Shown here in pieces: positions 3,735 to 55,277 of a stretch of 64,000 nt of DNA (its first letter is position 1; each line of letters starts with the position of its first letter). Source of the DNA: a virus; IMG/VR virus record IMGVR_UViG_3300042564_005549, positions 1 to 64,000 of that record. One strand, 5' to 3'. The translations under genes were made by a program, and so were the position numbers. The notes beneath the pieces are model-generated. The model searched no databases. It had not been told where the DNA came from and saw nothing but the letters and a program-made list of their open reading frames with translations.

Positions 3735-6572
3735 ATGGCAAATTCAAACAAAGTATTCGTTTCTCCAGGTGTATATACGTCTGAGAAAGATTTAACATTT
3801 GTTGCACAAAGTGTCGGAGTAACAACATTAGGATTAGCAGGCGAAACTTTAAAAGGTCCAGCTTTCGAACCCGTATTGATTACAGATTTTGATGAATTCA
3901 AAACGTACTTTGGTCCAACATCACCTGAAAAATATGGTAATGGAAACCCAAAATATGAATTGGCATATGTGGCAAAGGCTTATTTACAAGAGTCTAACCA
4001 ATTATTCGTAACAAGAGTACTTGGATTAACAGGTTTCAAACCTAATAAAACATTCGGTATTAAAACTATTGCCGGTATCACTTGGGATTCTACAGAAACC
4101 CCTGTTGAGACTTCAGGAACTTTAATACCAACAGTAACAGGAATTACAGGAAGTACATTCTTCTCTGCGTTATCAGGTAAAACTGCTAGTACAGGTGATA
4201 GTGTTACTGACTTTATTGTTGACGGTTCATACTCTAATGGTGATTGGTTCACAATTGGTGTTGTTCCTGAAGATGATATTGCAACACAAACAGGTACTCA
4301 ATTAACTAGTCCATTAGGTGAATACACCAATCAAAACTGGTATAACACATACTACACAACAAGTGGTGGAAACGTTAACGGTTTATATTCTTACTTATTT
4401 AGTTATTCAGGAGCGTCTTCTACTTTCGTAGTAACAAGATACAACTATACAGGAACAACAAGTAACAGTTATGGTGATATCACAGTTGCGGCTTTAAGAC
4501 CTCGTGGTGGATACACAATGGAGTCATTAGATTTAGAAGTTACCACAAATGCTGGTTTCTTAATTAGTTCTGATACTTTAACCACAAATCCATTGGGTGA
4601 GTTTACAATTAATGTAACAGGTTCTACAAGTGGAGCAAAAGAATTTACTTGTTCTTTAGACACTACTTCTTCAAAATATATTACAAAAGTATTAGGTAAT
4701 GACGTATTTGACAAGAAACGTGATGAGATACCTGTATATGTTCACGAAGTTTACCCAACATTAATTAAGACATTATTTGAACAAGGTTTAATTCTTGGTT
4801 TAAGTTTGGATGAAGTTTACCACACAGTTGGAACTGACTTCGTTGGGGAATGGGATACACCAGCATCTCCGATGGTAGTTTCTGAAGTACGTGGTGGTAG
4901 AGTTTCTGACTTATTCCAAGTATTCACAGTTTCTGACGGTAACGCCGCTAACTATCAAGTGAAGATTACATTCCTTAACATTGATTTAGATACCGGTGAA
5001 TTTGATATTCTTGTTCGTGATTTCAACGATACTGACGATAATATGGTTGTATTGGAGAAATTTACAAGATGTACAATGGATTCAACATTACCAGGTTATG
5101 TAGCAAGAAAAGTTGGTACACAAGACGGTGAATATGAATTACGTTCAAAATACGTTATGTTAGTTATGGCTGACGAACACCCTGAAGATGCAATTCCTGC
5201 AGGTTTCAAAGGATTCGTTGCTGATAATTTAGCGAGTTCAACATCTGTAATAGGTGCTGTTAAATACAAAACACAATTCTTAGATGCGGGTGAAGAGACC
5301 GGTTCGTACTCATTAACAGGAGAACCAACATTATCAGCACAAGGAGATAAACCAAAGAAAACATCTTTAGGTCTATCATCACAAGTTGGTTTTGATAGTG
5401 ACTTATTAAAATACAAAGGTGTTGCACCTGATGCGGTAACTGTAGGTTTCCACTTATCATCTAATGCTTCTTCAATCACAGGTAATACAATCACTGGTAA
5501 AATGTTTGATTGTACACCATACGATTTAGAAGGTGTAAGTAAAGGTAAATTAGAAACAGTTGCATATCGTAAATTCACATTTGCAGTATGTGGTGGTTTC
5601 GATGGTTGGGACATTTATAGAAGTTCAAGAACTAACGGAGACGGTTATGTGTTCGGTAAAAGAACATATGTATCGGGACATACAACTAATAGTGGTGTGT
5701 TTAGTACTTCAGTTGGTAACTCTGACTATTATGCTTACTTAAAAGGAATTGAAACATATTCTAACCCTGAAGCTGTTGATATTAACATATTTGCAACTCC
5801 GGGTATCAATTTCGATGACCACAATTCTTTGGTAACTCAAACAATTGACATTATTGAAAACGATAGAGCGGATTCACTTTATATCATTAACTCACCAAAT
5901 GTTTCATCATCTGACGAAGTTACTGATTTATTAGACGGAGCAAACTTAGATAGTAACTATTCTGCAACATATTGGCCTTGGATTCAAGTTAGAGATAACG
6001 ACAATTCAACTCAATTATATCTACCACCAACAGGTGAGGTTGTAAGAAACATCGCATTAACTGATAATGTTTCTTATCCTTGGTTCGCGGTAGCAGGTTA
6101 TTCAAGAGGTTTGGTGAATTCAATCAAAGCTTTCAAAAAGTTAACTCTTGATGAAAGAGATTCACTTTACAAAAATAGAATTAACCCAATTGCAACATTC
6201 TCTGATACAGGTACAATTATCTGGGGTAACAAAACATTACAAGTTAGAGAATCTGCACTTGATAGAATTAACGTAAGAAGATTACTATTAAGAGCAAGAA
6301 AGTTAATTTCTGCAGTTGCTGTAAGATTATTGTTCGAACAAAATGACGAACAAGTAAGACAAGAATTCTTGAGATTGGTTAACCCAATTCTTGAATCAAT
6401 AAAGAAAGAAAGAGGTCTTTATGACTTTAGAGTATCAGTATCAAGTGACCCTGAGGACATTGATGCTAATACATTGAGAGGTAAGATTTACATCAAACCA
6501 ACTCGTTCTCTTGAATTTATTGATGTAGAATTCATTATTACACCAACAGGTGCTTCATTTGAGAATATCTAA
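3735..6572 (+). CDS. contractile tail sheath protein
   Basis: N-terminal SPGVYTSEKD; C-terminal YSATYWPW, PWFAVAG, INPI, IWGNKTL, RINVRRLL, IKPTRSLEFI. Confidence 0.97.
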   Translation: MANSNKVFVSPGVYTSEKDLTFVAQSVGVTTLGLAGETLKGPAFEPVLITDFDEFKTYFGPTSPEKYGNGNPKYELAYVAKAYLQESNQLFVTRVLGLTGFKPNKTFGIKTIAGITWDSTETPVETSGTLIPTVTGITGSTFFSALSGKTASTGDSVTDFIVDGSYSNGDWFTIGVVPEDDIATQTGTQLTSPLGEYTNQNWYNTYYTTSGGNVNGLYSYLFSYSGASSTFVVTRYNYTGTTSNSYGDITVAALRPRGGYTMESLDLEVTTNAGFLISSDTLTTNPLGEFTINVTGSTSGAKEFTCSLDTTSSKYITKVLGNDVFDKKRDEIPVYVHEVYPTLIKTLFEQGLILGLSLDEVYHTVGTDFVGEWDTPASPMVVSEVRGGRVSDLFQVFTVSDGNAANYQVKITFLNIDLDTGEFDILVRDFNDTDDNMVVLEKFTRCTMDSTLPGYVARKVGTQDGEYELRSKYVMLVMADEHPEDAIPAGFKGFVADNLASSTSVIGAVKYKTQFLDAGEETGSYSLTGEPTLSAQGDKPKKTSLGLSSQVGFDSDLLKYKGVAPDAVTVGFHLSSNASSITGNTITGKMFDCTPYDLEGVSKGKLETVAYRKFTFAVCGGFDGWDIYRSSRTNGDGYVFGKRTYVSGHTTNSGVFSTSVGNSDYYAYLKGIETYSNPEAVDINIFATPGINFDDHNSLVTQTIDIIENDRADSLYIINSPNVSSSDEVTDLLDGANLDSNYSATYWPWIQVRDNDNSTQLYLPPTGEVVRNIALTDNVSYPWFAVAGYSRGLVNSIKAFKKLTLDERDSLYKNRINPIATFSDTGTIIWGNKTLQVRESALDRINVRRLLLRARKLISAVAVRLLFEQNDEQVRQEFLRLVNPILESIKKERGLYDFRVSVSSDPEDIDANTLRGKIYIKPTRSLEFIDVEFIITPTGASFENI

Positions 6573-6590
6573 TCTAAAAGGAGATAAAAT

Positions 6591-6622
6591 AAAAAAGGGG
6601 TTCCGAAAGGACCCCTTTTTTT
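6591..6622 (+). terminator. rho-independent terminator after the sheath gene
   Basis: A6-GGGGTTCC-GAAA-GGACCCC-T7. Confidence 0.85.
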
Positions 6623-6652
6623 ATATAGACACCATAATGGTGGGATAGAAAC

Positions 6653-6666
6653 GTTCCACGAGGAAC
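6653..6666. other. parS-like palindrome
   Basis: GTTCCACGAGGAAC differs at one position from the parS core variant GTTCCACGTGGAAC. Confidence 0.45.
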
Positions 6667-6917
6667 CAAAAATTTATAAAAATTATATCTTTATAAATTA
6701 CCCAGTATCTAGAACTAGTTGTTCTAGTATTTATTAATATATTATTAATAATCTAGTTCTTATTATGTTATTCTGGTGTCATACTGGAGCCTAGAGAAAA
6801 AATAAACAAAAAAAATGAGAAAATCAAGTCTCATCGAATAAATAAACGAAAAAAAACTATTTTCCAAATAGCACATATTTATAGGAAAGTAATAATTAAA
6901 AACTTAACAAATACAAA

Positions 6918-7406: not shown

Positions 7407-7433
7407 TATTACAATAAACATAAAATCTGTCTT

Positions 7434-7465
7434 AAAGGTCCTCAAAAGGGACCTTTATTTTTTTT
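7434..7465 (+). terminator. rho-independent terminator after the tube gene
   Basis: AAAGGTCC-loop-GGACCTTT followed by a T tract. Confidence 0.8.
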
Positions 7466-7471
7466 ATAAAC

Positions 7472-7500: not shown

Positions 7501-7506
7501 TACAAT

Positions 7507-10367: not shown

Positions 10368-13300
10368 ATGCCAAGCTACGTAGATTTTGATTCAACTAAA
10401 AGATTTAGGGATTACATATTAGGTAAGAATCTTTCATCACCTAATGGTCCACAAACCTTTAATGCAAGTTCATTTTCAGTTCAAAATCTAAGTGATGTTT
10501 CAGTACCTGATTTAGGTAATGTAGAAACAGAAAGAGACCTTAATTTACCACAAACCCAAAAATTAAACATATTCAAACCTATTGAATATTTTGTTAGGGA
10601 AACTTTAGATAATATTCCAAGGAGAGCTAATTTAGCGTTATATCCTTATTTTAGAGGAGGACAAGACTATAACATTATTAGTATAATGTCAACAAGTAAC
10701 TATGATACTGAATCTGAGTTATTTAAATTTGCCGCTAATAATATTAAAAACAATCCTAACGGACCTGTTTTTGCAAGAATCCAACAAAATTTATATGCTG
10801 CAACTGTTGGTAGAGTAAGATTAATTGATGCGTTACAAGGTAATTCTACAACTGCAATAAATTTAATTACAGGTAGAGAACCATTAGTTGAATATAATAA
10901 CAAGATAACAGTTGCAAAAACATTGGCGGGTAAAGCTGTTGATTTTTTACAAACAGTTTCAGGTGTTGAATTTCCTTTTAGTGAAGTACCGGGTGATTAT
11001 TTAACCAACCCAAGAAATCCTGTAAATGTAAGACCTGTTGCACAGAATGAAGCACAAGCGATACTGCAAGATGTTACAGGTGCTATTGGTTCGTTGATTG
11101 GAATAGAAAGAAGACCAAAGGCATCAAGAAAACCTTCAGATTTATTCATTGAATATATGGGTGAAGGTCAAAGACAAAGATTATATGATTTATTATCATA
11201 TTCAAAATATGCACCAAATTACACAACAACCGCGAGGTCTCAACAATCGTCTAAAATATTTTCATTTGTTGATAAAGTTGCGTCAGGTGTAAAAAACTTA
11301 TTAGGGTTAGAAGCACCAAAAGGACAAGCATACATTGGTGATGACAGAGGTAATGACGTTAAGTACGCAATGAATGATTTTAACGACAGACCTGTAAGAA
11401 GTAGTTTTTATTTATCATCAATGTTTGACCCAATTCAAGCGGGTTTATTTGAACGTAAAAGAAATATTACAGAAGGTGGACCAATTGCGGGTAAGTTAAC
11501 TTGGATTAGTCAAAAATCAACAAATAGAATCGGTGCAAATAATAAAGAATTTGCAACCGAACAATCACAATACACGGGAACCCTATCAACAAATTTTAGA
11601 TTTAGAGATGATTCTATTTTAGGAGTTACACAAGATTTACTTAACACATTACCATTTAATGGTGGTGAACAAAAGAGACACGTTGCGAATGTTATTGACC
11701 AAACAAGTAGAGTCTTTAGAGATGGTAACGTTACTATGTCAAGAGGTTCTAATGTGAAGTATGTTAATATGTATTCGGGTGAAGAGAGTGGTGTTGAATA
11801 TTGTAGAGTATGGACCAAAGATAGGTCACATATGAACTATTCCGACACAATGAAAAGAACTGGTCTTATTAGAAAATATAATTCTTCAGTTTTATCAACA
11901 CCGTACAATTTAAACATATATCCAAATTCAGACGGTAAATCATCATTTGATGGTTCAACAAATATCGTTAAAGGTAATGGTGGATTTTATGCTAAGAAAT
12001 ATATGTTCTCAATTGAGAACCTTGCTTGGAAAACATCTAACATACCGGGTTTTACTTACAATGATTTACCTTATTGTGAAAGAGGACCAAATGGTGGTCG
12101 TGTTATGTGGTTTCCACCATATGATTTAAAAGTTAGTGAACAAAATAGTGCTAAATGGGAAGAGAATACTTTCTTAGGTAGACCTGAACCAATTTACACA
12201 TATCAAAACACAACAAGAAATGGTAGTGTGTCATTCAAAATTGTTGTTGACCACCCAAGTATTTTAAATTTATTAGTTAGAGAACACTTCAAAGGAATGT
12301 CTGATGAAGAAGCTGACAACTATATTCACGCATTTTTTGCGGGTTGTGAAGATTTAGATTTCTATTCATTGATTAGAAAATACACAACACTTGAACAAAG
12401 TGATATTCAGAAAATTCAAGCATACCTATCATATTCAACTGACCCTAAAGTTATTGAGAAAGTTAAAACAATTACAGACCCGGTTAAGGATTTAACCGTA
12501 CCACAAGTACCAGGTTCAACACCAACTAAAGGAGGTACTTCTGAAAATAATACAGCAGGAGGACCAATTGCTAAAAAGTTTATGTTATTTTTCAAAAATG
12601 ACTTTCCAAAGAAGGATGACAAAAATGAATTAGATGGTTTAAAATATGGAACATTATATGAATCATATAATAGAAGTCAATATATCGATGAATTAACTCA
12701 AGGTTTATTAACAAACGATGATGCGTTATTCAACCCAAGTCACGCTTGGGGACCAAAGAGTCAAAACGATTATAAAATATTATACGGAGAAGAAAGTAAA
12801 ACAAGACCTGATAACGCTAAAATTGCGGAACTAACAGGTAAAACAATATCAGAAATTAATAAAGGTTTTGATACACTTGATGTTACTTATAGTGGATTCA
12901 CACAACAAGTTACTGAACTAAAAGGTTTATTAAAAGATAAAAAAGTACAAACAATAAAATTATCAATTCAAGCATCAACATCTTTTGTCGCTGATGATAC
13001 GTATAATTTGAAATTATCATACAGAAGAAGTTCAAGTATTATAAAACAATTTTTAGAAGGGGTTGCCGGAGAAGGTGCTAAACCTGAAAAATTAAAAGTT
13101 AATTGGAAAACATCTGCGGTTAATGAAAAGGACAAAGCAAAGACCGAAACTTTAGACGCTATTAGTTTTAGAGATTTAGGTTATGATTATGATGGTGAAA
13201 TTAGATTTAATTTTATTGCTAATAGAGGTGAACAATTCACTGCACAAGTTTCTCCCGATAAGAATCTTAATTGCCATAATCTTGAAATAAAAAGTAACCT

Positions 13301-15188
13301 TAAATTAAAACGTACCGCACCTGTAACATTTTATTGTAGAGAGGCAACTCTTGGTGTTGAGTATTCAACAAAACCAGCGGAGAACCCAACACCAACACCT
13401 CCACCGCCAGGAATTATTCCAAACATTACTATTCCAACGGTAAATGTTATACCGGTTATTGAACAAGGTAAAAAAGAACAACCACCACTTGACGAATTAA
13501 AAAGAATTATAATGAAGACTTTGGGTGAATGTTATTACTTCAAACAATTAGAAGAAACATCACCTATAGCATTTAGTTCATTAAAAGAGAAATTAAAATA
13601 TTTTCATCCGGGATTCCACTCAACAACTCCTGAAGGATTAAACGCACGTTTAACTTTCGTACAACAATGTATTAGACCGGGAGATACTATTCCTATTAAA
13701 GGAATAAATGATGAGACGGATTTACCTGCGAGAAATACAACATTCGGACCACCACCAATTTGTATTATGAGAATTGGTGATTTTTACCATTCTAAAATTA
13801 TTATTAGAGACGTAAACATTGCGTTCGAGAACTCAACTTGGGACCTAAACCCCGAAGGAATTGGTATTCAACCAATGATTGCCGACGTAACGCTACAAGT
13901 TAGTTTTATTGGTGGTCACGGAATGGAGAAACCTGTTGAAAGATTACAAAACGCTTTATCATCAAACTTCTATGCAAATACTGAAGTATATGATTACAGA
14001 GCAACCGCAACAGAAGATAGAAGAAAGTTCAATAAAGAAGAACTTGAAAAACTATCAGGTATCAGAACACCAAATCCAACAACGTTGGCTCCAATACCCC
14101 CAAGTCCTGAAAGTGCGAACAATGTGAGTAGAGGACAATATCTCGGTGAAATATCGGGTAAAACCTTAAATTATGATAAATTGATAAAGAATGTGTTTAC
14201 CTACACAACAATTTATTATGATACCTACGACCAAGCGATTAAAAGTATTACTAAAAAATATGGTAATAAAATTGCAAGTGTATTCTTTTCACCAACATAT
14301 AGAGAAGTTAAAGATTATGTAATTAAAAAGGTTGATAATAGTAACAATGTTACAGATTTAACTGTACAATTATTTGGACAACATAAAAGTCCTTCAAAAT
14401 TAACAAACAATACCATTTCAGTATTTAGAATTAAAATGAAGGATAAACTTGCAAGTACAAATATTACAACGATGTTTGGAATTGACGAAGTTTTAAATAA
14501 ACCATTAACTGATTATACTGAAACATATTTAAAACCAATTATTGCAGATGAATTAAACAAAGTATTACAGGAAGCTGCGGAAGATAAAACGGCAATTGAG
14601 TTAGAATCTAAGAGAAATCAATTAATTGACAACTTAGATAAACTTAGTTATGTTATTAGTACAACTCACGATGGTAAAATTTTAGAAGGTAACGTATTTT
14701 CAGGAGCAACGTTCGATTATGCATCACCAACAGGTTTTACCAAAAACAAGATTTATAGTCAATATGAAAAATGTGTTGATTATATCCAAAAGTATGACCA
14801 AGTAATGTTAGCGGATATTGATAGTTCATTAGTTTTCGGTAGAGAAATGACATTAAGTGACGATAACTTTAAAGAATTTGTTAGTTTATTATTATTTAGT
14901 AAAAAACAAGTTCTTTTAGATACACTAACCAAAAAAGATTCCGTAAATTTTAATGAAGGGGTAATAAAAACTATTGACAAGAAACTAACTAAGTTTTTTG
15001 TGGAACCAAAAGTGATAAATGTTAAACTTGGAAAATATCCAGAACCCAAAAATACGAACAAAGTTGAATTCCAAATAGTTAACGAAGATTTTGTAATCAC
15101 AGGGGAGGATAAATCTAATTTAATAAAACTACATTCCGCAGATACAAGATTAGGGGATAAATTAAACTACTATAGAAAGAAAAAATGA
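10368..15188 (+). CDS. large baseplate/tail-tube-initiator-like structural protein
   Basis: 1606 aa. FLGRPEPIYTYQNTTR and PPICIMRIGDFY segments resemble tube-initiator (gp48/54-like) folds. Follows the tape measure. Confidence 0.55.
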   Translation: MPSYVDFDSTKRFRDYILGKNLSSPNGPQTFNASSFSVQNLSDVSVPDLGNVETERDLNLPQTQKLNIFKPIEYFVRETLDNIPRRANLALYPYFRGGQDYNIISIMSTSNYDTESELFKFAANNIKNNPNGPVFARIQQNLYAATVGRVRLIDALQGNSTTAINLITGREPLVEYNNKITVAKTLAGKAVDFLQTVSGVEFPFSEVPGDYLTNPRNPVNVRPVAQNEAQAILQDVTGAIGSLIGIERRPKASRKPSDLFIEYMGEGQRQRLYDLLSYSKYAPNYTTTARSQQSSKIFSFVDKVASGVKNLLGLEAPKGQAYIGDDRGNDVKYAMNDFNDRPVRSSFYLSSMFDPIQAGLFERKRNITEGGPIAGKLTWISQKSTNRIGANNKEFATEQSQYTGTLSTNFRFRDDSILGVTQDLLNTLPFNGGEQKRHVANVIDQTSRVFRDGNVTMSRGSNVKYVNMYSGEESGVEYCRVWTKDRSHMNYSDTMKRTGLIRKYNSSVLSTPYNLNIYPNSDGKSSFDGSTNIVKGNGGFYAKKYMFSIENLAWKTSNIPGFTYNDLPYCERGPNGGRVMWFPPYDLKVSEQNSAKWEENTFLGRPEPIYTYQNTTRNGSVSFKIVVDHPSILNLLVREHFKGMSDEEADNYIHAFFAGCEDLDFYSLIRKYTTLEQSDIQKIQAYLSYSTDPKVIEKVKTITDPVKDLTVPQVPGSTPTKGGTSENNTAGGPIAKKFMLFFKNDFPKKDDKNELDGLKYGTLYESYNRSQYIDELTQGLLTNDDALFNPSHAWGPKSQNDYKILYGEESKTRPDNAKIAELTGKTISEINKGFDTLDVTYSGFTQQVTELKGLLKDKKVQTIKLSIQASTSFVADDTYNLKLSYRRSSSIIKQFLEGVAGEGAKPEKLKVNWKTSAVNEKDKAKTETLDAISFRDLGYDYDGEIRFNFIANRGEQFTAQVSPDKNLNCHNLEIKSNLKLKRTAPVTFYCREATLGVEYSTKPAENPTPTPPPPGIIPNITIPTVNVIPVIEQGKKEQPPLDELKRIIMKTLGECYYFKQLEETSPIAFSSLKEKLKYFHPGFHSTTPEGLNARLTFVQQCIRPGDTIPIKGINDETDLPARNTTFGPPPICIMRIGDFYHSKIIIRDVNIAFENSTWDLNPEGIGIQPMIADVTLQVSFIGGHGMEKPVERLQNALSSNFYANTEVYDYRATATEDRRKFNKEELEKLSGIRTPNPTTLAPIPPSPESANNVSRGQYLGEISGKTLNYDKLIKNVFTYTTIYYDTYDQAIKSITKKYGNKIASVFFSPTYREVKDYVIKKVDNSNNVTDLTVQLFGQHKSPSKLTNNTISVFRIKMKDKLASTNITTMFGIDEVLNKPLTDYTETYLKPIIADELNKVLQEAAEDKTAIELESKRNQLIDNLDKLSYVISTTHDGKILEGNVFSGATFDYASPTGFTKNKIYSQYEKCVDYIQKYDQVMLADIDSSLVFGREMTLSDDNFKEFVSLLLFSKKQVLLDTLTKKDSVNFNEGVIKTIDKKLTKFFVEPKVINVKLGKYPEPKNTNKVEFQIVNEDFVITGEDKSNLIKLHSADTRLGDKLNYYRKKK

Positions 15189-15508
15189 GTAACCAATATT
15201 TTGATAGATACCAATATTTTATAGACGACGGTAGTTTTAAGATAGTACCCGGCATTGAAATACCAATTAAGTCTACGGACAAATACTTTCAATATAAAAA
15301 AGGTAAGGATAGACTTGATAAAGCGTCACAGGAATATTATGGAACACCGTATTTTGGTTGGTTAATTATGTTAGCGAACCCAATGGCGGGTAGTGTTGAA
15401 TTTGAAATTCAAGATAATTTTATAATTAGAGTTCCATTTCCATTAGTAACGACTTTACAAGACTATAAAAGAGGAATAGAATTGTATAAGTTATACTATG
15501 GCGAGTAA
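15185..15508 (+). CDS. LysM-like baseplate wedge protein (gp53/gpX-like)
   Basis: KDRLDKASQEYYGTPYFGWLIMLANP...IIRVP. Confidence 0.75.
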   Translation: MSNQYFDRYQYFIDDGSFKIVPGIEIPIKSTDKYFQYKKGKDRLDKASQEYYGTPYFGWLIMLANPMAGSVEFEIQDNFIIRVPFPLVTTLQDYKRGIELYKLYYGE

Positions 15509-18500
15509 AAAAGGAAACACAAACGATATATTAGTTAAGGTCGACCAAAACAATTTAATGTACATCGACCCTAATAGTGTCGTATCTGATGGTCAGGTTT
15601 TAATGAGAGAAAGTAAACCTGAAGAACTTGTTATGTATGTTAACTTGGAAGCGGATTTAATTCCAAGAACCACATTAGTAACAGGTAACGAAGCCAGTAC
15701 TCTAACCTCAATAGCTAAAGGTACATTTAATTTAATGCGAAATGCGGAAGGTAGAGACTTTGATTCTAAATGGACTGATGCCTATACTGAGTATGACCAA
15801 AAAACAAAAAAAGATAAAGACGGAAATCAAATACCAACCGGTCAATTTTATCAATTTGATAGTACCGCACAAAGTTTTGGTATTGATAGTATAAGTATTC
15901 AAATTCAAGGTGTGAATGTTATTCCACAAGTCAATATTAAATTTATTGATGTTAGGGGTAAAACATTATTTGAATCACCTGAAAATTCCCCATATAAAGC
16001 ATTCTTCCATTTACCTTGGCCAATATTTTATTTAACTATAAAAGGTTTTTATGGAAAGGCAATTAGATACAGACTTCACTTAGTAAAATTCAACTCAAGG
16101 TTTAACTCTGGAAATGGTAACTTCGAAGTTGACACAACTTTTGTTGGTTCAACATATGCTTATTTAAATGACATTCCATTGGATGGAATAATGGAAGCAC
16201 CGTATATGTTCCCAATTGAAAGTATCAAAGACGGTAAGTTCAATGAGAAGACAAAAAAATATGAAAAGGTAATTAAAAAAACAAGTAGAGGTTTAACAGT
16301 ATTAAAATCAGTTTATTCTGAGTATAGACAAAAAGGATTACTACCAAAAACATTTCCCGATAAAACACTTAGGGAAGTGATAAAGATTGCACAAAGGTTA
16401 GAAACAATATTGGAAGAAGAAATTTTTTCAAAAACCGCTGACCCTAAAGTATTAAATGGTATTCGTGAATTCGATAACATATTAAAGAACTTTGAAAAGG
16501 CTTTAGTTTCTTGGAAGTCAAAAAATTTAAGTGCAGAATTTTTTAGAAAAGAACCAAATGAAAGTATAGAATGGAACGTACTTTTGGAAAAAAGTAAACC
16601 AGCAACCAGTTTAGCAACATTAACGGGTTCAACACCAGGTACTTTAGAACTCTTGATTAAAACAAATATCCAATCAATGGATAATAATCAGGCGTTTGGT
16701 AAAAATAGAGACGTTAAATTATTAAAAGATAAAACGATTAACACGAGAACAATTTCAGGAGACGCTTTACTTAACTTAAAGAATTTCTATAAAGTTGACT
16801 CTAAGATTGGTGTTGATATTAATGGTATGTTACAAACATTGTACACCATTCAAAAAGATTATATCGAAGAAAGAAACAAACTTGAACAACTGATTGAGAA
16901 AAAAATGAACGATATCATCAAACGAAGAGATATCGGAATTGGGTTTGAACCCACAATTCGAAATGTTGTTGGTTTAATTTTAGCAAACGCAGACACATAT
17001 ATTCGTTTATTAAAAGATACACATTATAAAGCATTCCAAGTTGCCGAACAAAGGAAAGATATTTTAAATTCAGTATCGACAGATAGTGTTGGCGAATCTA
17101 TATATCCTTGGCCGGAAGTTAAAAAACCTGCAACAGGTAAAAAACAAAACGTTTTAGAATATCCGGGTTCATTTGAAATGGCAAAGAAATTACAGAGCTA
17201 TGATAAGAAATTATGGCCTGAAGTTGATTTTGTTGAAAACTATCACGCAGTCTCAACAAAGAAAATTGAACCCAACGATTCAAATGAGAATGGTCCCGAT
17301 TTAATTGATTATACCACCAACAATGATTCTGAATCATTACAGAAACGAGACATTAGTATGTTAACGTATCTGAATGGTGCAATTCCATATGACGATAAAT
17401 CAATATCGTCAATTTTATATGAGATATGGGAAAGAGCAACGTATGTAACAACTATTGATTCATTTAATAATAATACGATTCAAGAATTAGCATTATTAGA
17501 ATTCGACAACATTAAAAATAGAGTTGCTGAAGATTTTGATATTATTGAGGTTTTAAAAACATCAGTAAGAAATACTGAAGAGCTAAAAAAATATATGTTA
17601 GGTTTTTCTGCATATGAAAGATACCCATATTATGAAGACCAACTTCCAACTATTCCTTACATTAGAGAATCTTTGGAATCTGATTTCAAAATTGAGAAAT
17701 ATGTACCGAAAAACAAATCATTATCAAACAACAGGTACTACCCTAATTTAGCTCAAAATTTAATTAATTATATTGGAGAGGAATATAGAGTAAATCTTTA
17801 TCCATTCAATTCAACAGAATATAGTAATTTCTTATCACCATCTGGTTACACAAAAAATCAGATACACCTAAAAGGTATGGTAAGATTAAACACAACTGAA
17901 GATTTTATTTCATCACCAATCGAACCCGAAATGTGGGTGTGGTCGGATGAAGTTGAATATGTTGTTGACATATCAGGAAGTACAGGAAGAAATACGAGAA
18001 AAGGTAGAAACTTATTTGACAATCATATTAGTTTCGATACCATCGATTATCAAGGTGCACCAACCACCGAATTAAGAATGATGATTAATACTCCGTATTT
18101 CCATAAACAATTATATAACGACTATCAAAATAGAAAATCTAAGGGAAGATTTGCAGGTTCTGCTTACTTACTTTTAAACCAATTAAATTTCAAAGATTTA
18201 TCACATCAATTAACTGATAAGGTAAATCAAATTTTACAGGCAGTATCTCACATTCCACAAGATGGTGTATTAATGTCTTCAATGTTTAGAGAACTTGGAG
18301 CATCACACTATGTTCCGTATCATTTAGTACTAAAATGGGGAGCATTGTATCATAGATACAAAAGACATATATTAGAAGGTGTTGATATTTTATCAGGTAT
18401 CACAGAACCTATTAACACAAAGTTATTTTATGACCTTAATTTAGATAGAACATATACTTTGCCATTTACAGGTAGACAAGGAACCACAAGTATTAATATC

Positions 18501-21353
18501 TATAGAGGAGCAAATCCAAATAGTCAATATGGTTTCTTCCCGTATTATCATTCTATATTTCATCAAATAGCGAATGATTATACTTTTTATAATCCATTTG
18601 CAACCACAGGAAATACGATGTATACTGAAATGGTAGATAAAGGTGTTGTAAAACCAATTTTTAAAATTGGGGGTGACGGAGGATGGAGTTGGAGTGTTAT
18701 GGTTGATAACTCTAAATTCGATTCAAAAGACCAAAGATATACGTTATTACCGGGTTCAGGACACATCTATTCAAATATGTCCACAACCGGATATAGTAGA
18801 AATGAACAAGACAATTTTAAAACTTATTGGTCAAACTATGACCAAATTTATATGGGTAATGAATCACCACTTTATAGTGGAGAAACATTTAATCCATCGA
18901 CCCAATATATGGTAAGTAAAAAGAATTGGTTACCAACTTTATCATCCAACAATAGAAAAATTATAGATTTGATTGCAACATTCAAACCTGAAATTTTAGA
19001 TGAGTTTGAAGATATGTTCCTTGAATTTGCGTCAGATACATTAAATGAAGAAGTTCCACAATCAAAATACAACTTCAAGTACAATACATTTAAGAAAATG
19101 CTCAAGGAGATTGTATCAGTTCCGAAATATTCGACCGATACATTTGACACTGTCAGTACTATGAATGACTTTATGATGAATATCTATTGGAGACAAAAAG
19201 AAAAATTATTCCAAATCTCTAATGACATTTTAAGTAATGACAACTTAGTTAAGATAACTTTATCAAATCCAAAGGAAATCAATGCTCACGTATTAGGTGG
19301 ATTCGCACAGGCAAACGTTGAGAGATTCTCAACGGGTGAAGACTTCGATGCCGGACAAATCAATACTGAAACACAAAATTATATAAAACTATATCTCGGA
19401 GAAGATATGGACAATTACTATGAGGATTTCTTCAGGTATAATAATGTTGAGTTAAGTGTTGATAACATTAAAAGATTTAGATTTTTAATTTACATATATG
19501 CTGGATTTAGAAAGGCCGGTAACGGAATAAGTAAAGCTGACTTTGTGAATTATTTAAGAAACAATATCATATTAAAAGATTCGGACCCCGTATCAAAAGT
19601 TGGGGGACAAGCAAACAGACTAGGTTTATTTTTAAAAGTATTGATTAGTCGATTTAACACACTTAAAGCGGACAATGTTGAACAAAGATTAAAAATAGAC
19701 AGAGGTTATAATGATGATATAATTAAATTAGAATTATACAACTTCTTCAAATCGTTTAACGATAAATGGGTTGCAGGTAACTCAATTGGACAAAGAAATT
19801 TATTAGAGGAATTTTTATTCTTGGATAAAGCTAATGTCGATATTGGTGACTCGGTTTATATTGATATTAAAAAATTAATTGAGATTGGCGACCAAAGAAA
19901 CTCTAAGAAACAAAATTTATATGGAACCATCTCAAATTTAATATCGAGAACCGGTTTCGATATGAGAGCAATGCCAGCTTATATTAATTTCTACGGAACG
20001 AACTATAACAACAAAGCAAAAATAACTCCGTCAAAAACGGTTGCAAAAAATATATTCGGAACTTTCTTGGAGGTTGATTATCAGGATTCATCACCTAAAA
20101 TCATTTTACAATATACAGGACCAACTTCAAAATATTTGGAGATGAGTGAAGTGAATAAAAAAATGATGTTTAAGGACGATAGTTTTAATATTCAACAACC
20201 AAATAACAATCCGGTATTAGTTGCTCCCGAAGTATTCAACACAATCGATTTCTTTAAATCAAATAAAGCGGTTGCGTTTGAGGTTAGTTTTGGTGACCAA
20301 AACCAAGGAATATTCAAGGGGATTGAATTAAATCAGTCTTCAGTTAAAAATACATCCGAATCATTTGCGGTGTTAGAAAGATTAGGTGCTAGTGAAACAG
20401 GTTCAAGTACTGCACAGGTGGATATTGGGTTGTTTGACATTTATAGGTCACAGTCCTACACTTGTGATGTTACTATGATGGGTAATGTAATGATTCAACC
20501 TACAATGTACTTCTATCTTAAAAACATACCATTATTTAGAGGAACATATTGGATTCAAGAGGTTACACACAGTATTAGAAATAACACCATTGAAACAACC
20601 TTCAAGGGTACAAGAATACCTATTACTTCACTCCCTGACCCTAAAGACTCGTTTATGGCAAGTTATAGAGCGTTGTTTGATAAAATGGTTGCTAAGGCGG
20701 TGGCCAAAGTTAAAGATGAAAATCAAAAACTTGCAAATAAAACTAATAACGAAAAAGTAGTACAGGATAATAAAGGTAACACTTACGTTTATGACCCGGG
20801 TACTAAAACGGTTAGTGGTGAAAAAATAATTGAGAACGCTTCATCTACTCCATATGGTATTTCATATAATGGATTTAAGAATGAGAAGTATGTTCAATTA
20901 GTAAAATACAATGATGAAGAGTGGTTAAGAGGTAATGTTGTGACTATGGGAGGTACTAATTACCCAATTGGTAATGATATTGACTTAGGATTTGTTAGTA
21001 GATATGAATTTACATCGGGAAGTACGAAAACTAGTAGTAGAGTTAAATGGGTTGAGGTTAGTCCAAACTCAGATAAAGATATGTTCTATTCAACTAAATT
21101 CTTATTTGATAGTGTACTCACACCTAATACAATTTTAGAGGGTTCACCTAAAACTGAATTCTTTAATCCTGACCCTAAGAAAAATAAGAAATATACACTC
21201 GGATATAGTTACAATTTCGATACAAGAAGATTCGTCGGACCTGTTAACACAGGACCTGCAGATATACCTTATGGTATAGGTATGTCTAAAGCATTAATGA
21301 AAGAACTTGATTTATATGATGGAGATATTGTTTATTTCCGATTAATAAAATAG
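15498..21353 (+). CDS. very large baseplate hub protein (gp27/gpD-like C-terminal part)
   Basis: 1951 aa. YTCDVTMMGNVMIQPTMYFYL...GTYWIQEVTHSI...TTFKGTR is hub/late-control-D-like. Follows the LysM gene. Confidence 0.6.
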   Translation: MASKKGNTNDILVKVDQNNLMYIDPNSVVSDGQVLMRESKPEELVMYVNLEADLIPRTTLVTGNEASTLTSIAKGTFNLMRNAEGRDFDSKWTDAYTEYDQKTKKDKDGNQIPTGQFYQFDSTAQSFGIDSISIQIQGVNVIPQVNIKFIDVRGKTLFESPENSPYKAFFHLPWPIFYLTIKGFYGKAIRYRLHLVKFNSRFNSGNGNFEVDTTFVGSTYAYLNDIPLDGIMEAPYMFPIESIKDGKFNEKTKKYEKVIKKTSRGLTVLKSVYSEYRQKGLLPKTFPDKTLREVIKIAQRLETILEEEIFSKTADPKVLNGIREFDNILKNFEKALVSWKSKNLSAEFFRKEPNESIEWNVLLEKSKPATSLATLTGSTPGTLELLIKTNIQSMDNNQAFGKNRDVKLLKDKTINTRTISGDALLNLKNFYKVDSKIGVDINGMLQTLYTIQKDYIEERNKLEQLIEKKMNDIIKRRDIGIGFEPTIRNVVGLILANADTYIRLLKDTHYKAFQVAEQRKDILNSVSTDSVGESIYPWPEVKKPATGKKQNVLEYPGSFEMAKKLQSYDKKLWPEVDFVENYHAVSTKKIEPNDSNENGPDLIDYTTNNDSESLQKRDISMLTYLNGAIPYDDKSISSILYEIWERATYVTTIDSFNNNTIQELALLEFDNIKNRVAEDFDIIEVLKTSVRNTEELKKYMLGFSAYERYPYYEDQLPTIPYIRESLESDFKIEKYVPKNKSLSNNRYYPNLAQNLINYIGEEYRVNLYPFNSTEYSNFLSPSGYTKNQIHLKGMVRLNTTEDFISSPIEPEMWVWSDEVEYVVDISGSTGRNTRKGRNLFDNHISFDTIDYQGAPTTELRMMINTPYFHKQLYNDYQNRKSKGRFAGSAYLLLNQLNFKDLSHQLTDKVNQILQAVSHIPQDGVLMSSMFRELGASHYVPYHLVLKWGALYHRYKRHILEGVDILSGITEPINTKLFYDLNLDRTYTLPFTGRQGTTSINIYRGANPNSQYGFFPYYHSIFHQIANDYTFYNPFATTGNTMYTEMVDKGVVKPIFKIGGDGGWSWSVMVDNSKFDSKDQRYTLLPGSGHIYSNMSTTGYSRNEQDNFKTYWSNYDQIYMGNESPLYSGETFNPSTQYMVSKKNWLPTLSSNNRKIIDLIATFKPEILDEFEDMFLEFASDTLNEEVPQSKYNFKYNTFKKMLKEIVSVPKYSTDTFDTVSTMNDFMMNIYWRQKEKLFQISNDILSNDNLVKITLSNPKEINAHVLGGFAQANVERFSTGEDFDAGQINTETQNYIKLYLGEDMDNYYEDFFRYNNVELSVDNIKRFRFLIYIYAGFRKAGNGISKADFVNYLRNNIILKDSDPVSKVGGQANRLGLFLKVLISRFNTLKADNVEQRLKIDRGYNDDIIKLELYNFFKSFNDKWVAGNSIGQRNLLEEFLFLDKANVDIGDSVYIDIKKLIEIGDQRNSKKQNLYGTISNLISRTGFDMRAMPAYINFYGTNYNNKAKITPSKTVAKNIFGTFLEVDYQDSSPKIILQYTGPTSKYLEMSEVNKKMMFKDDSFNIQQPNNNPVLVAPEVFNTIDFFKSNKAVAFEVSFGDQNQGIFKGIELNQSSVKNTSESFAVLERLGASETGSSTAQVDIGLFDIYRSQSYTCDVTMMGNVMIQPTMYFYLKNIPLFRGTYWIQEVTHSIRNNTIETTFKGTRIPITSLPDPKDSFMASYRALFDKMVAKAVAKVKDENQKLANKTNNEKVVQDNKGNTYVYDPGTKTVSGEKIIENASSTPYGISYNGFKNEKYVQLVKYNDEEWLRGNVVTMGGTNYPIGNDIDLGFVSRYEFTSGSTKTSSRVKWVEVSPNSDKDMFYSTKFLFDSVLTPNTILEGSPKTEFFNPDPKKNKKYTLGYSYNFDTRRFVGPVNTGPADIPYGIGMSKALMKELDLYDGDIVYFRLIK

Positions 21354-37204: not shown

Positions 37205-39003
37205 TGGAAAAAAGAAAAATTATATTACCAGAGAAGAGGTATCATAAAGCATCTTCAGAAGACCAAATCCTCCAAATAAATTTTGAAGAGGGTAAGAGTT
37301 TATTAACAAACGACGACAGAGATGTTATTTTGGACATAAATGAGTTATTCGGTCAAGAGAGAAACGATAGTAAAAGATATAAATTATATGGTAAACTAAA
37401 AGTTGTATTTAGAAATATGTACAGTGGGTTATCAAGTTACTTACCATTGTCAGAAGAATTGGCATTGGTTGGTGACGGAGATGACGGTGAATTTGATGGG
37501 TACTTACCATACAATGAATTTGCTTTTTTAAGAAATGATGTGTATCGAGAAAAGTCTAACGATATCGATGTTGCAGATTTAAGTACGTTCACGGGAATTA
37601 CAGTAACAAAAACAGGTGACATTACACACCAATTGATTACACCGATGAATGCTCCTTATCACAATTGGAATTTATACGTATCATACGTTTATGACCACGA
37701 TGAAAGTTATCCGATGAAGTACACGTTGTCAGGAAACACAACGATGAGTTTTGTGAGTGGAGATGGTATTCCTTTTAGAATTTCAGATAACAACGCAAGT
37801 TATAGATTAACAAGCCCTGTTGACCACGGAATGAGTGAAGGTGAATATGTTATACTTGGAGGTTACCCATATTATATTAATTCTATCGGTAATGAATATT
37901 ATAATTCAGAACTATATGTTTTAGATATTTTAAAATCACAAATACCTTCAGGAACAACAACATTCAACAATACGTTAGTAACAGGTAAAAGATGTATTGA
38001 TACAAAAAATATATCAGGAACCACATCAACATATTATGTTCATAAACATAAAACCGCAACTAATACTAACGATTATATTTTAGATAAAGCAGGATTTGAA
38101 AGTCCGATTTTTGAAGATGAGAGAAAATTAGTATTTGAAAATATATCAGGAACTAATGATGTATTAGTTGAGAGAAATAGAATGGAGGCCGTTCTTTATG
38201 ATTTTAAAGAACCCTTTGTATTAACAGGATTAACAAATAATTTAAATTATGAACCAACTGATTTATATCTATCGGTTTTATTTAGAAATGGAAACGGGTA
38301 TTTTGATTACCCACCTAAAGTAGGTTGGAAATTTAATTTACACAATACTTGGATTGATAACCATTTTAATGGTTCAAATAAATCATTACCTCCATATGAA
38401 ACAGGTATGGGTACAGGTACACAATTTGTAAAAAGTGGAATCACATTTACAAGCGGTAGTACATTACCAGTTGGTACTGTATTAACAGGTGCTTTTATAG
38501 AATATAGTCCTTCACAAATTAAAGAAAGGGTAATATCGGAATCGATGTATAGGTTATCAAATCCTACAAATATTTTTAATTATAATCAATCAGTAACAGT
38601 TGAAGGATTTAGTGGAGCAACATCTACAAATATGTATGGTGTAATTTATCAACCACATTATAGAGTTAAAATTAGAGAGTTGTCACCATACGTCGAGGCG
38701 TCATCAACGGCAGATATAGATAATCTACCACAAAACGCAAGATTTTTTCCATTCGAGAATGTATGGAAATGGAGAGACGTCTATGATTATGGATACACAG
38801 ATGATTTAGGATATGGAGTTGACTATCCGTTTTTAAATAATACACATTATGTAAGAACCGATATTAATTTCTATATGAGAAATGAAAAAAATTATCAACA
38901 TAAAGCTGATGGAATTTTTGATTTCAACGGATTTATCAATAGATATAATAATAAAAATAATAGATTGGATAGAAATAATTCAAACACAAGTAAAAACTGT
39001 TAA
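37204..39003 (+). CDS. putative structural protein
   Basis: 599 aa, translationally coupled (TAATG), rich in [ST]GxT. Confidence 0.6.
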   Translation: MEKRKIILPEKRYHKASSEDQILQINFEEGKSLLTNDDRDVILDINELFGQERNDSKRYKLYGKLKVVFRNMYSGLSSYLPLSEELALVGDGDDGEFDGYLPYNEFAFLRNDVYREKSNDIDVADLSTFTGITVTKTGDITHQLITPMNAPYHNWNLYVSYVYDHDESYPMKYTLSGNTTMSFVSGDGIPFRISDNNASYRLTSPVDHGMSEGEYVILGGYPYYINSIGNEYYNSELYVLDILKSQIPSGTTTFNNTLVTGKRCIDTKNISGTTSTYYVHKHKTATNTNDYILDKAGFESPIFEDERKLVFENISGTNDVLVERNRMEAVLYDFKEPFVLTGLTNNLNYEPTDLYLSVLFRNGNGYFDYPPKVGWKFNLHNTWIDNHFNGSNKSLPPYETGMGTGTQFVKSGITFTSGSTLPVGTVLTGAFIEYSPSQIKERVISESMYRLSNPTNIFNYNQSVTVEGFSGATSTNMYGVIYQPHYRVKIRELSPYVEASSTADIDNLPQNARFFPFENVWKWRDVYDYGYTDDLGYGVDYPFLNNTHYVRTDINFYMRNEKNYQHKADGIFDFNGFINRYNNKNNRLDRNNSNTSKNC

Positions 39004-39809
39004 TGAAAGTTTTAAAAAATATTAGAGATGGTATAGTCTTAAATTTAGAATCCAACTTCAAACCAGATTTAGGTAGAGAAGAGGCGTTAGAACAATTTGA
39101 GAACGAAACCATAAGAACCATTATCAATCCTGCGGAAAATTACGAAACGATGAGGTATATTCATAAACCTTATTCGGGTATCACTTCAAACCCAACGGAC
39201 ACTCAATCAGATATTTGGTTTTATTTTTATTTCTATAATCAAAGTGGAACTCACGTTGGTGGTTTAGATTATTCTTTAATTGGTATTGACCATATCGAGA
39301 ATGCTAAACAACTTAGACAAACTACTAAAACATTTTTTAGATTAGAATTTTTTATGGTTCCTGATGGTGAAGTTCCCGATAGAACAAATAGAAAATTAGT
39401 ATTTGCTAAAAATCTTTCATTACCACTTGGAGAAAAAGTTTTTTACACCGGATTTAACGATTACATAAGTGTACCCATTTTTAATGGTTCAAATTATAGA
39501 AACAAAGAAAATATGTATCTGTTTTGGTTCCAAGAGGATGACGCATTTGTCGGTACTATGTTAACGGGTACAACTTTTTATATGACTGCAAGATTTTTTA
39601 ATGGAGAAGACGGAACTGTTTTAAACTTTTCAAACACATCTTTATCCACTAACACTTCAGTTTTGGAGTATAGAGATTTATATTATAAGGTAACGATAGA
39701 CAGGTCAGATTATTCATATCAAGTATTCAGATATTCAGGAACTACAGGAACAAGAATCGGAGAATCGGGTGACCCCATAAAATTTTATGAAATAGTATCT
39801 GGAGGATAA
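39003..39809 (+). CDS. putative structural protein
   Basis: 268 aa, coupled by a TAATG overlap. Confidence 0.6.
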   Translation: MKVLKNIRDGIVLNLESNFKPDLGREEALEQFENETIRTIINPAENYETMRYIHKPYSGITSNPTDTQSDIWFYFYFYNQSGTHVGGLDYSLIGIDHIENAKQLRQTTKTFFRLEFFMVPDGEVPDRTNRKLVFAKNLSLPLGEKVFYTGFNDYISVPIFNGSNYRNKENMYLFWFQEDDAFVGTMLTGTTFYMTARFFNGEDGTVLNFSNTSLSTNTSVLEYRDLYYKVTIDRSDYSYQVFRYSGTTGTRIGESGDPIKFYEIVSGG

Positions 39810-53084: not shown

Positions 53085-53120
53085 CGATAACATAAATTCT
53101 AAAAAGAATATTTATAACAT

Positions 53121-55277
53121 ATGAGTTTTTTACACGAAAATGAATCAGAACATATAGCTGCGAGAATCACCAACGAAGGTAGACAAAAAATTGCTGAAGG
53201 TAATTTCAATATTGTCTATTTCCAAGTCGGAGATTCCGAATATGACTATAATTTCGAAGAGTATGATGGTACTTCAGGTACCACAAACCCATCTCAAAAG
53301 GTATTCACACCTTTGGATAAAGATTCTATTGTAAAATACCCATACAAGTTATCAGAATCAACAGTTACAGGTACAACATTTGGTAACCCAATTCAAGTAG
53401 CTCAAATAGAAACTATTAGAAATGAAATGGGCGCTGCGGGATTTGTTTCGGCTTATTTAGAATTTGATGATACAACAGACCCTTGTACAGGAACAACCGT
53501 TGAATGTTCAAATGAAAAGATACCGGTTTCGGCTTTATCAGGAACCACAACATTATATCTAACAGGAAACACATTTTCTGATTGTCAATATATAACAATT
53601 GCATTTACTGAATTAATCGGTGCAGATGCGGTGATTTCAGGAACATCAACAAGTTTAATTTATAGAGTAACTAATTTTGTTTCAGGTTCATCTGTTAATA
53701 CATTAACATTGGATAGAGCGACTCCAAATATGTCAAATATATGTTCAGGAGGTTTTGCAACTGTTATGTGTAACAAATGTAACCCATTTTTTCCTGGTCC
53801 ATATGAAACAGATTTAACTTGTTTACCAAACACACAAAACCCTGAAGACCAACAAGACCCTTGGACATTGAACATTGTGTGGAGTGAAAGACCTGCCGGT
53901 GTTAAAAACCAAGGTTCAGAAATTCAAGAATATGTTAGTGGTTACACAAGTAACGTATTCGTTTCAACAAAAGAATTTTTAGGATACGGTTCGTCATCGG
54001 GACAAACTGTAAACACAGGAACAACAATTACCAATTCATTTGGTGATTCGGTTGTTGTATTTCCTGAAGAACAACATAGTATAGCGATTATACATTATTC
54101 GGAATTGAATACTGAAAGAGAACCTGAAAAATTCTTTAAGTATGAAGATTATATTAGTACTAATAATAGTCTTACTGATGCGTTATTATATGACACAGAC
54201 GACCAACCAGTTACTGATTTAGATTACTTTGAGGTTTATATTCCATTTATTTATTATAATAGAAATACCGGTACCACAATAGGTGCAACATTCACAATGG
54301 ATACTACAGATTATTTTGTGAATTCAACCGCAATGGATACTAAATTAAATAAAATAAAGTACAGATACCTAATTGACGAAAGAGGATATAGAGTAGGTAG
54401 AGTTTATTATAATAACAAAATAATTGTATTTGATGACCAAGAGATTGTTGCAGTTTTAGATTACAAATCTAATAGAAAATATACATTACCAATTCCAAGA
54501 GTTTCTCAAGTTCCTGTTGATACTAAATGTAGCACCAATGGTAACCCATTAACACCACTTATGAGTGGAACTACAGGTCAAACTGTATTTGTTACATATC
54601 TTTTAGAATTTAGTGGGTCAACATCTTTACATTGTAACCACTATTCAAAAATAACAGGTACATCGTTAAATGCTGATATATCATTAAGATTCTCTGATGA
54701 TGATTGGGGACATATGAAATCTACAAAATGTGGATTTAAAGATGGTTACATTGCTGACAAATTATATGCATTAGTTCAATTGGTAGACACTGGTGACCAA
54801 CCACAAACTAATTTATGGACAAAGATTAATATTACATCGGACATCCCTAACCATACTACAGGATTAATTGACCCTGATAATTTAAAAGGTGCACGTTTTG
54901 TTATCACAAATGATGATTATGATAATGGTACGATATATGACATTGAAGACCATTTAGGTGAATTACCCGACCAACCAGCACCATATGCAAACGGTAGTTT
55001 TTATCAAACAACTCCTCAATTTGGTGACGAACAACCATTCCCTGGTAGTGTAAAATTGATTAGAGCTTCCGACTTAACTGTTATGAGATTCTTAGTTAAT
55101 TTACCAAATGGTGAATTTACAACAACACAAAACCCAAGTTATACCACAGGTAAAACTAAAAGAATTACTGAAGTTGCTTTACTTAACAGTAATAAAGAAG
55201 TTTTAGTAATCGGTAAAACACCAAAACCAATTCACAGAGTAGGAACTCAAGTATTTGCAGTTAAAATTGACCTCTAA
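53121..55277 (+). CDS. tail-collar/fibre-attachment protein (DUF3751-like termini)
   Basis: N-terminal ARITNEGRQKIAEG..FQVGD and C-terminal ITEVALLNSNKEVLVIGK..PI..VKIDL. Confidence 0.65.
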   Translation: MSFLHENESEHIAARITNEGRQKIAEGNFNIVYFQVGDSEYDYNFEEYDGTSGTTNPSQKVFTPLDKDSIVKYPYKLSESTVTGTTFGNPIQVAQIETIRNEMGAAGFVSAYLEFDDTTDPCTGTTVECSNEKIPVSALSGTTTLYLTGNTFSDCQYITIAFTELIGADAVISGTSTSLIYRVTNFVSGSSVNTLTLDRATPNMSNICSGGFATVMCNKCNPFFPGPYETDLTCLPNTQNPEDQQDPWTLNIVWSERPAGVKNQGSEIQEYVSGYTSNVFVSTKEFLGYGSSSGQTVNTGTTITNSFGDSVVVFPEEQHSIAIIHYSELNTEREPEKFFKYEDYISTNNSLTDALLYDTDDQPVTDLDYFEVYIPFIYYNRNTGTTIGATFTMDTTDYFVNSTAMDTKLNKIKYRYLIDERGYRVGRVYYNNKIIVFDDQEIVAVLDYKSNRKYTLPIPRVSQVPVDTKCSTNGNPLTPLMSGTTGQTVFVTYLLEFSGSTSLHCNHYSKITGTSLNADISLRFSDDDWGHMKSTKCGFKDGYIADKLYALVQLVDTGDQPQTNLWTKINITSDIPNHTTGLIDPDNLKGARFVITNDDYDNGTIYDIEDHLGELPDQPAPYANGSFYQTTPQFGDEQPFPGSVKLIRASDLTVMRFLVNLPNGEFTTTQNPSYTTGKTKRITEVALLNSNKEVLVIGKTPKPIHRVGTQVFAVKIDL

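Follow-up and report, generated by a model that had tools for sequence, protein, structure and literature searches.

The 64,000-nucleotide stretch of viral DNA analysed here (positions 1 to 64,000 of IMG/VR record IMGVR_UViG_3300042564_005549; hereafter the window) raises the question of why one four-residue pattern, Ser or Thr followed by Gly, any residue and Thr ([ST]-G-x-T), should recur in so many tail proteins of a single phage. An earlier note, made by eye from the sequence, had read this motif as a candidate glycosylation sequon by which the phage decorates its virion surface. We found that the motif exceeds chance five- to seventeen-fold in the outer tail proteins of this phage and of its whole clade, and the evidence supports selection, at the level of the protein, for a signal in exposed tail parts that is neither a composition effect nor a repeat. 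The excess is real and conserved; glycosylation sites and a favoured tight turn cannot be told apart from sequence, and of the readings weighed below we prefer, at about an even chance, a structural turn.

The window opens a contig of 81.7 kb (record G000), of which it spans the first 64 kb; CheckV puts the completeness of the contig at 24%. Sixteen virion-module open reading frames (ORFs; 12,009 residues) contain 80 motifs, against 19.7 ± 4.4 in global shuffles, whereas the other 55 ORFs of the contig contain 6 where 6.0 are expected, three of the six being the Walker A sequence TGKT. The virion proteins are rich in Thr, Ser and Gly and include long (Thr-Pro)n runs, which would favour an artefact of composition, but block shuffles over 8 to 40 residues, which keep the local richness in these residues, returned only 20.3–23.5 motifs (z about 13). 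Permuted arrangements of the same residues (n = 25) were found 19–47 times, with a median of about 26; the order of the residues therefore matters, and the block shuffles and permuted motifs together rule out global or local composition as the cause. An unbiased scan of all 8000 a-b-x-c triplets placed SG.T (40 observed, 7.4 expected) and TG.T (36 observed, 11.4 expected) at the top once the low-complexity (TP)n runs were set aside. Shuffled protein by protein, nine proteins gave p values of 0.002–0.012 or less.

Several other trivial sources of the excess were also ruled out. Ser within the motif is encoded by TCA or TCG and by AGT, that is by both the TCN and the AGY families, and Gly by GGA and GGT; with this mixed codon use, and with conservation of the motif at 30–60% protein identity, it cannot be a DNA-level motif. 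Internal repeats and common family ancestry fail as well, as the motifs stand in differing contexts, are not parts of longer repeats, and occur in families as unrelated as those of the 53121 and 37204 proteins (hhalign probability 0.15%; proteins are named here by the first position of their genes). Nor is the excess a general trait of beta-rich phage tail proteins: in control regions of T4, Microcystis phage Mel-JY01, the uncultured phage LR756508 and Vibrio phage Va1 the ratio of observed to expected motifs was 0.7–1.5.

These results bear out most of what the earlier note had counted. Its figures of 13 motifs in the 53121 protein, 8 in the 37204 protein, 6 in the PKD-like protein, at least 7 in the tail sheath (we count 7) and none in NrdA were exact, and its figure of about nine for the 41685 protein was one short of the 10 that we found. 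The UvsX-like 23656 protein and the 26143 helicase have, as it had said, the Walker A TGKT only, and the claimed enrichment in structural over non-structural proteins withstands correction for Ser, Thr and Gly composition.

The signal is specific to certain protein families and not genome-wide (Table 1). The gp6-like baseplate wedge subunit belongs to the virion yet lacks the signal, which makes it an internal contrast, and the tube and 8401 proteins likewise have no motif excess. The tail sheath motifs lie at residues 135, 138, 147, 239, 295, 582 and 647, six of the seven falling in a non-conserved insertion part that precedes the conserved C-terminal sheath core, and the sheaths of Mel-JY01 (30% identical) and T4 (gp18) have none. 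In the 41685 protein all 10 motifs lie outside the TP runs, although the threonines of those runs inflate the expectation of 3.42; its 45 homologues carry 524 motifs against 172.7 expected. Eight homologues of the 39809 protein carry 67 against 5.9. The 53121 protein, probably a tail or baseplate component, is encoded directly downstream of the cluster of TP-linked adhesins; within that cluster the neighbours of the 50207 adhesin (48094, 48773 and 51900) showed no clear motif excess in shuffles. A peripheral baseplate role for the 33461 protein is suggested by the position of its gene after the wedge gene.

Table 1. Motif-bearing and contrast genes of the window, with [ST]-G-x-T counts observed and expected from shuffles.
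Feature	Coordinates	Strand	Length (residues)	Observed	Expected	p	Remarks
Tail sheath	3735..6572	+	945	7	1.72		PHROG tail sheath match at residues 639-943
Giant virion-module protein	10368..15188	+	1606	5	1.09	0.008	No family match
Giant virion-module protein	15498..21353	+	1951	8	1.06	0.002	
NrdA	28540..30957	+	805	0	0.45		Non-virion representative
gp6-like baseplate wedge subunit	31578..33407	+	609	0	0.36		PHROG baseplate wedge
Probable peripheral baseplate protein	33461..37204	+	1247	5	1.21	0.006	
Baseplate-module protein	37204..39003	+	599	8	0.44		
Small baseplate-module protein	39003..39809	+	268	3	0.33	0.012	Homologue in locus L161 has 4 motifs
PKD-like protein	39809..40747	+	312	6	0.83		PKD matches weak, under cut-off
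Giant baseplate/fibre protein	41685..47510	+	1941	10	3.42		(TP)n stalk
TP-linked adhesin	50207..51874	+	555	5	2.12	0.07	
Conserved tail/baseplate protein	53121..55277	+	718	13	1.15		Strongest case

The motif proved to have an extended form, hydrophobic-[ST]-G-x-T-hydrophobic. Over the 80 sites, hydrophobic residues occupy position −1 in 76% (L, V, I, Y or F) and position +4 in 47%, where the background is 34%; they never occur at positions 0 and +3, and Asn is frequent at +5. At position 0 Ser and Thr occur about equally, and throughout the virion ORFs nothing else is favoured there, Asn being avoided (1 observed, 6.2 expected) and Asp neutral (7 observed, 5.9 expected); position +3 is Thr specifically, with no enrichment of Ser, Val or Ile. 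The variable residue x is often T, S, A or N, with certain sites ranging over G, N, S, T and D. By itself the [ST]-Gly dipeptide shows only a mild enrichment (Ser or Thr precedes 26% of Gly, for an S+T composition of 18%), and the signal lies in its coupling with Thr two residues after Gly: Thr occupies that position after 36% of [ST]-G but only 10% of other Gly (odds ratio about 5), compared with 7% and 6% in the non-virion ORFs. Avoidance of Asn-Gly deamidation does not account for the scarcity of Asn, given that the NG dipeptide occurs at expectation in the virion ORFs (62 against 58, a ratio of 1.07) and Asn is rare only before G-x-T. Tyr, too, is strongly avoided immediately before G-x-T (1 against 5.4 over all virion ORFs).

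The excess is shared by a large group of uncultured aquatic phages with genomes of up to about 335 kb and 27–38% GC, from which we retrieved 201 loci, 121 of them from IMG/VR and 80 from metagenomes. It recurs there in the homologues of the 39809, 39003, 37204, 41685 and 53121 proteins and the replication and recombination genes nearby lack it. Each of the 53121 and 37204 families numbers over 1000 homologues, with statistics taken on the 120 listed per family. In the former (48–93% identical to the window's protein) the mean is 10.9 motifs against 0.96 expected, and the 79 homologues that lie in IMG/VR loci carry 979 against 90.4; in the latter the count ranges from 4 to 16, with a mean of 11.3 against 0.67. 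In one locus, L202, which comes from a 324-kb metagenome contig, the main protein is 93% identical. Conserved sites swap Ser and Thr freely at position 0 and vary at x, while Gly and the final Thr are retained: Thr at +3 is kept in 71–76% of homologues, compared with 44% for other Thr, and Ser or Thr at position 0 in 75%, compared with 53–58%. The best-conserved site, SGYT at residue 273 of the 53121 protein, is present in 115 of the 120 homologues. Where a site is lost, both hydroxyls may go together, as in the change from SGQT to xGQL in the 53121 family, which fits residues that work as a pair.

The clade is distantly T4-like: besides the sheath, the tube, hub, gp6-like wedge and prohead protease could be identified. 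Of the ORFs scanned in the 24%-complete contig none matched a major capsid, portal or terminase protein, which says nothing about the whole phage; the contig amounts to only some quarter of a phage genome of around 330 kb. PHROG and Pfam offered no family for the motif-rich genes beyond the sheath match of Table 1, and the cultured phages of INPHARED gave no match to the 53121 or 41685 proteins.

AlphaFold models were built from 66-sequence alignments for the 53121 protein (predicted local distance difference test score, pLDDT, 81.8) and the 37204 protein (pLDDT 72.3). Every one of the 21 modelled sites falls in coil or at the edge of a strand; at about 12 a strand or bridge begins within two residues after the motif, about seven are clear strand-loop-strand elements, and the rest are placed in longer loops. 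Tight hairpins were modelled at site 123 (E--E) and, as strand-turn-strand, at sites 176 and 411. The three best-conserved motifs of the 53121 protein (SGYT, SGQT and TGTT) stand together at residues 273–302. Residues 265–310 are also the most conserved stretch of the family, with a consensus around SGYTSN..FVSTKEFLGY.TSSGQT.NTGTT and a pLDDT of 48–67, a low confidence of the kind expected of an interface or of a segment that would order only on binding.

Both models contain a small six-stranded beta-barrel (residues 122–220 of the 53121 protein and 186–273 of the 37204 protein), of a type known also from translation factors, flavin reductases and protein J of the phage lambda tail tip (VIA Z 6–8). 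The claim that the motif recurs across unrelated folds stands by sequence, while the predicted structures qualify it with a shared barrel of a common type. The best structural match to the 53121 model was the tail of Haloferax virus HFTV1 (Z 10.2, root mean square deviation 2.0, 111 residues aligned), with other phage baseplate chains next in rank; a Foldseek search of the PDB returned no clear match to this model.

The reading that we favour, with confidence about evenly divided for and against it, is that hydrophobic-[Ser/Thr]-Gly-x-Thr-hydrophobic is a strand-loop-strand turn cassette, reused in the exposed tail parts of this clade of aquatic T4-like phages with genomes of about 300 kb: in outer sheath domains, peripheral baseplate proteins and fibres. 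The two hydrophobic residues would be the last and first inward-facing residues of neighbouring strands, Gly would make the tight turn, and the hydroxyls at i and i+3 would face outward and either cap the turn or pair across it. Ordinary selection on the proteins, favouring surface turns that are stable, polar and protease-poor, would keep the motif, which would spread to new loops as these fast-evolving proteins change. The extended anatomy, the i/i+3 coupling and the location in coil between strands look like a tight turn and would require no enzyme or modification; the turn geometry and the absence of modification are the parts of this account that we infer.

Two-residue beta-hairpin turns of types I' and II' with Gly, flanked by a cross-strand pair of Thr or Ser, are a classical form of beta-turn, and the residues most often found at x (T, S, A and N, also G and D) are those favoured after Gly in such turns by beta-turn statistics. 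The motif resembles them in having Gly at the turn with small polar residues next to it, coupling between i and i+3, and hydrophobic residues at i−1 and i+4 on the opposite face. It differs in its strictness, for such turns normally also tolerate Asn or Asp, whether in the turn or preceding it, and flanking Val, Ile or Tyr, whereas here Asn is avoided and only Thr is enriched at +3.

A number of observations weigh against a purely structural habit. Positions 0 and +3, confined to Ser/Thr and to Thr, are more stringent than turn or strand propensities alone suggest. The secondary-structure contexts assigned by DSSP are mixed, comprising two-residue hairpins, hairpins of four to five residues, long loops and one helix end, and the best-conserved site, SGYT 273, lies in a low-confidence loop. 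Full-length homologues 35–40% identical, in at least six separate clades, carry no motif, so the fold does not need it, and homologues about 30% identical carry 8–15 motifs, mostly at other positions, a turnover that looks like selection on the number of motifs and not on particular turns. A structural habit also leaves unexplained why some ten unrelated families should converge on one turn in a single lineage and not in T4, Mel-JY01, LR756508 or Va1; we know of no precedent for a lineage-specific excess of a turn motif of five- to seventeen-fold. This convergence, the two strict hydroxyls, the maintenance of number and the motif-free alleles point to an outside factor, and the most concrete such factor would be a modifying enzyme specific to the clade.

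In the motif-free homologues Gly is often kept at the aligned sites and Ser or Thr is replaced by D, N or E. AT mutation pressure is not supported as the reason for their loss of the motif, since loci of 27% GC (L161 and L169) are still about sevenfold enriched. An all-or-none trait of whole genomes is not supported either: locus L167 has a motif-free 53121 allele beside upstream tail proteins that keep the motif, and L194 has the reverse, its T/G-rich fibre proteins carrying 0–1 motifs where about two are expected and its 53121 homologue carrying 7. Loss of the motif is specific to the protein and not to the genome. The L167 gene (L167:7697-9586, JACCDG010250179.1) encodes a Lys- and Asn-rich product (K 9.7%, T 5.4%) that is 34% identical to the 53121 protein, among neighbours up to 85% identical to those of the window, and looks like a tail-protein allele replaced within an otherwise conserved backbone. 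No close relatives of the motif-free lineages (P0127 and others) were found in IMG/VR or the metagenome collection.

The outside factor could be a sugar. On this account, which we think rather unlikely and nevertheless the strongest of the rivals, the motif is an acceptor sequon for cytoplasmic O-glycosylation by phage-encoded glycosyltransferases, and the sugars coat the outer tail. The clade would then use hydrophobic-[S/T]-G-x-T as an O-glycosylation code, written into surface turns on some ten unrelated tail proteins and read by its own cytoplasmic glycosyltransferases, a picture we can put forward only tentatively. A sequon would suit a signal that is lineage-wide, spread over many families, confined to exposed proteins and absent from related phages outside the clade. 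It would also suit the need for hydroxyls on both defining side chains, the constancy of number under turnover of position, the existence of alleles entirely without the motif, and the better conservation of motif residues than of like residues elsewhere. What to the earlier note looked like a selected modification signal, not a structural repeat, is upheld as selected and as no repeat; modification is a partly supported hypothesis, and the anatomy matches a tight beta-turn.

The gene content of the contig and its relatives cuts both ways. Searches with PF00535, PF00534, PF13844, PF01075 and TIGR04414 (GT2, GT1, GT41, GT9 and heptosyltransferase) found no glycosyltransferase in the window or elsewhere in the 81.7-kb contig, 24% complete as it is, which fits a turn that needs no enzyme and tells against the sequon. 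Relatives do carry glycan islands, with 5–6 GT2 matches apiece, genes for GT1 and as many as five for NAD-dependent sugar epimerases or dehydratases, all far from the motif-rich genes. Such islands, at G003:C1:263000-305500, G002:C1:108000-114600 and G004:C1:153000-163000, include GT1, GT2 and GT9/TibC-like genes and vary in content between genomes. A 245-residue GT2, which in G002 lies at 70559-71293, is present in all four records that are at least 90% complete, and a 367-residue GT2, at 113473-114573 of G002, in three of the four, but no acceptor could be assigned to either. The clade clearly devotes genes to making glycans and, in part, to glycosylating proteins. The earlier suggestion of a phage-specified decoration system thus finds backing in relatives that encode many glycosyltransferases, some of them protein-specific, and none in the available part of this genome.

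The protein-specific enzymes match TIGR04414, the 'autotransporter strand-loop-strand O-heptosyltransferase' family of Aah and TibC, and occur in 4 of 32 records of relatives (222–288 bits, cut-off 200). In L215:472-4079 (G005) and L214:79-3615 (G012) they are fusions of about 705 residues with TIGR04414 in the C-terminal half (280–286 bits). There the gene adjoins a tail-fibre gene with about 70 collagen-like (Gly-Ser/Thr-Ser) triplets, which in G012 also has an endosialidase-chaperone domain. To judge from this arrangement the collagen-like fibre is likely self-glycosylated and the obvious acceptor of the adjoining enzyme. The fibre in L215 does carry four motifs, but the enzyme stands beside this more obvious substrate and not beside the motif-rich proteins, and it is absent from G002 (93% complete) and G006 (92% complete), both of which keep 13–14 motifs in their homologue of the 53121 protein. 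The clade's one recognisable protein glycosyltransferase therefore does not track the motif, an absence that again suits the structural turn.

Known glycosylation systems offer partial likenesses. The heptosyltransferases Aah and TibC, acting on AIDA-I and TibA, work in the cytoplasm, where they attach sugar to many sites on beta-rich surface proteins (PMC4358343, PMC3835316), and TibC modifies Ser, including Ser followed by Gly, and not Thr (PMC4358343). The likeness lies in these mapped Ser-Gly acceptor sites and in the true family members of the four relatives; the differences are the lack of such a gene in the available 24% of the genome and in near-complete relatives that keep the motif, and the equal use here of Ser and Thr with Thr required at +3. 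No sequence consensus for Aah is reported in the literature. The motif was ruled out as a signature of TibC/Aah acceptors by the passenger domain of Ag43, a known acceptor, which contains 3 [ST]G.T motifs against 2.8 expected.

Mycobacteriophage virions are reportedly glycosylated by glycosyltransferases that the phages encode, as Freeman et al. are said to have described in Cell Host Microbe in 2023, a study to which PMC12801897 refers; the acceptors are reportedly the Ser/Thr-rich C-terminal tails of capsid and tail-tube subunits, and the enzymes are said to be encoded next to the structural genes. To our knowledge this is the only experimentally shown precedent for phage-encoded decoration of a virion. 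By analogy it lends the sequon some plausibility, in that a phage's own cytoplasmic enzymes decorate its own structural proteins; it differs in having no dispersed four-residue motif, and in the window there is no enzyme. Bacteroidota O-glycosylation likewise uses a short sequon on exported and surface proteins. It acts, however, in the periplasm, through which phage virion proteins do not pass before lysis, and the Bacteroidota sequon D-[ST]-[AILVMT], from which the present motif had been distinguished at the outset, is not enriched in the virion ORFs (47 against 51.8 ± 7.4).

The (TP)n stalks of the motif-bearing proteins would compete with the motif as equally plausible acceptors; mucin-like, they are plausible O-glycosylation targets in their own right. 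Very long (Thr-Pro)n runs extend over positions 41685-53084 of the window, with 105 TPTP/PTPT words in the 41685 protein and 6–35 in each of the four adhesins downstream, and TPT occurs 151 times in the virion ORFs against 10.7 expected.

A third account, which we consider improbable, makes the motif a recognition or binding element, the outward hydroxyl pair on a Gly turn serving as a weak carbohydrate-binding patch or being read by a clade-specific assembly chaperone. Such patches would hold the tail to polysaccharide of the host or the environment, and the lineage specificity, the restriction to the outer tail, the requirement for two hydroxyls and the clustering of the three best-conserved 53121 motifs in a conserved, low-confidence segment would all fit. 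This account lacks specific support and an identified partner, and turnover at many sites over ten families is hard to square with specific interfaces. An artefactual signal, arising from composition, internal repeats, common ancestry or a motif in the DNA, is scarcely credible after the shuffles, permutations, codon usage and family comparisons described above, even though homologues are non-independent samples.

Compared with these alternatives the structural turn cassette has in its favour that Gly in the turn, i/i+3 coupling and hydrophobic flanks are all present. If the motif is purely structural, it would be an unusually clean case of fast-evolving surface proteins converging, throughout a lineage, on a single turn motif, and a useful marker for the exposed proteins of the clade. 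If instead sugars are attached at it, glycosylated virions would be a common feature of abundant uncultured aquatic phages, predictable from sequence and with a bearing on host recognition, on virion stability and on the contact of particles with polysaccharide-rich surroundings, and the motif would be the first O-glycosylation sequon to be defined by sequence in a bacteriophage and could be recognised in metagenomes. Either way the question is testable, now that a small motif-rich protein (the 39809 protein, with 312 residues and six sites) and a short list of conserved glycosyltransferases have been defined.

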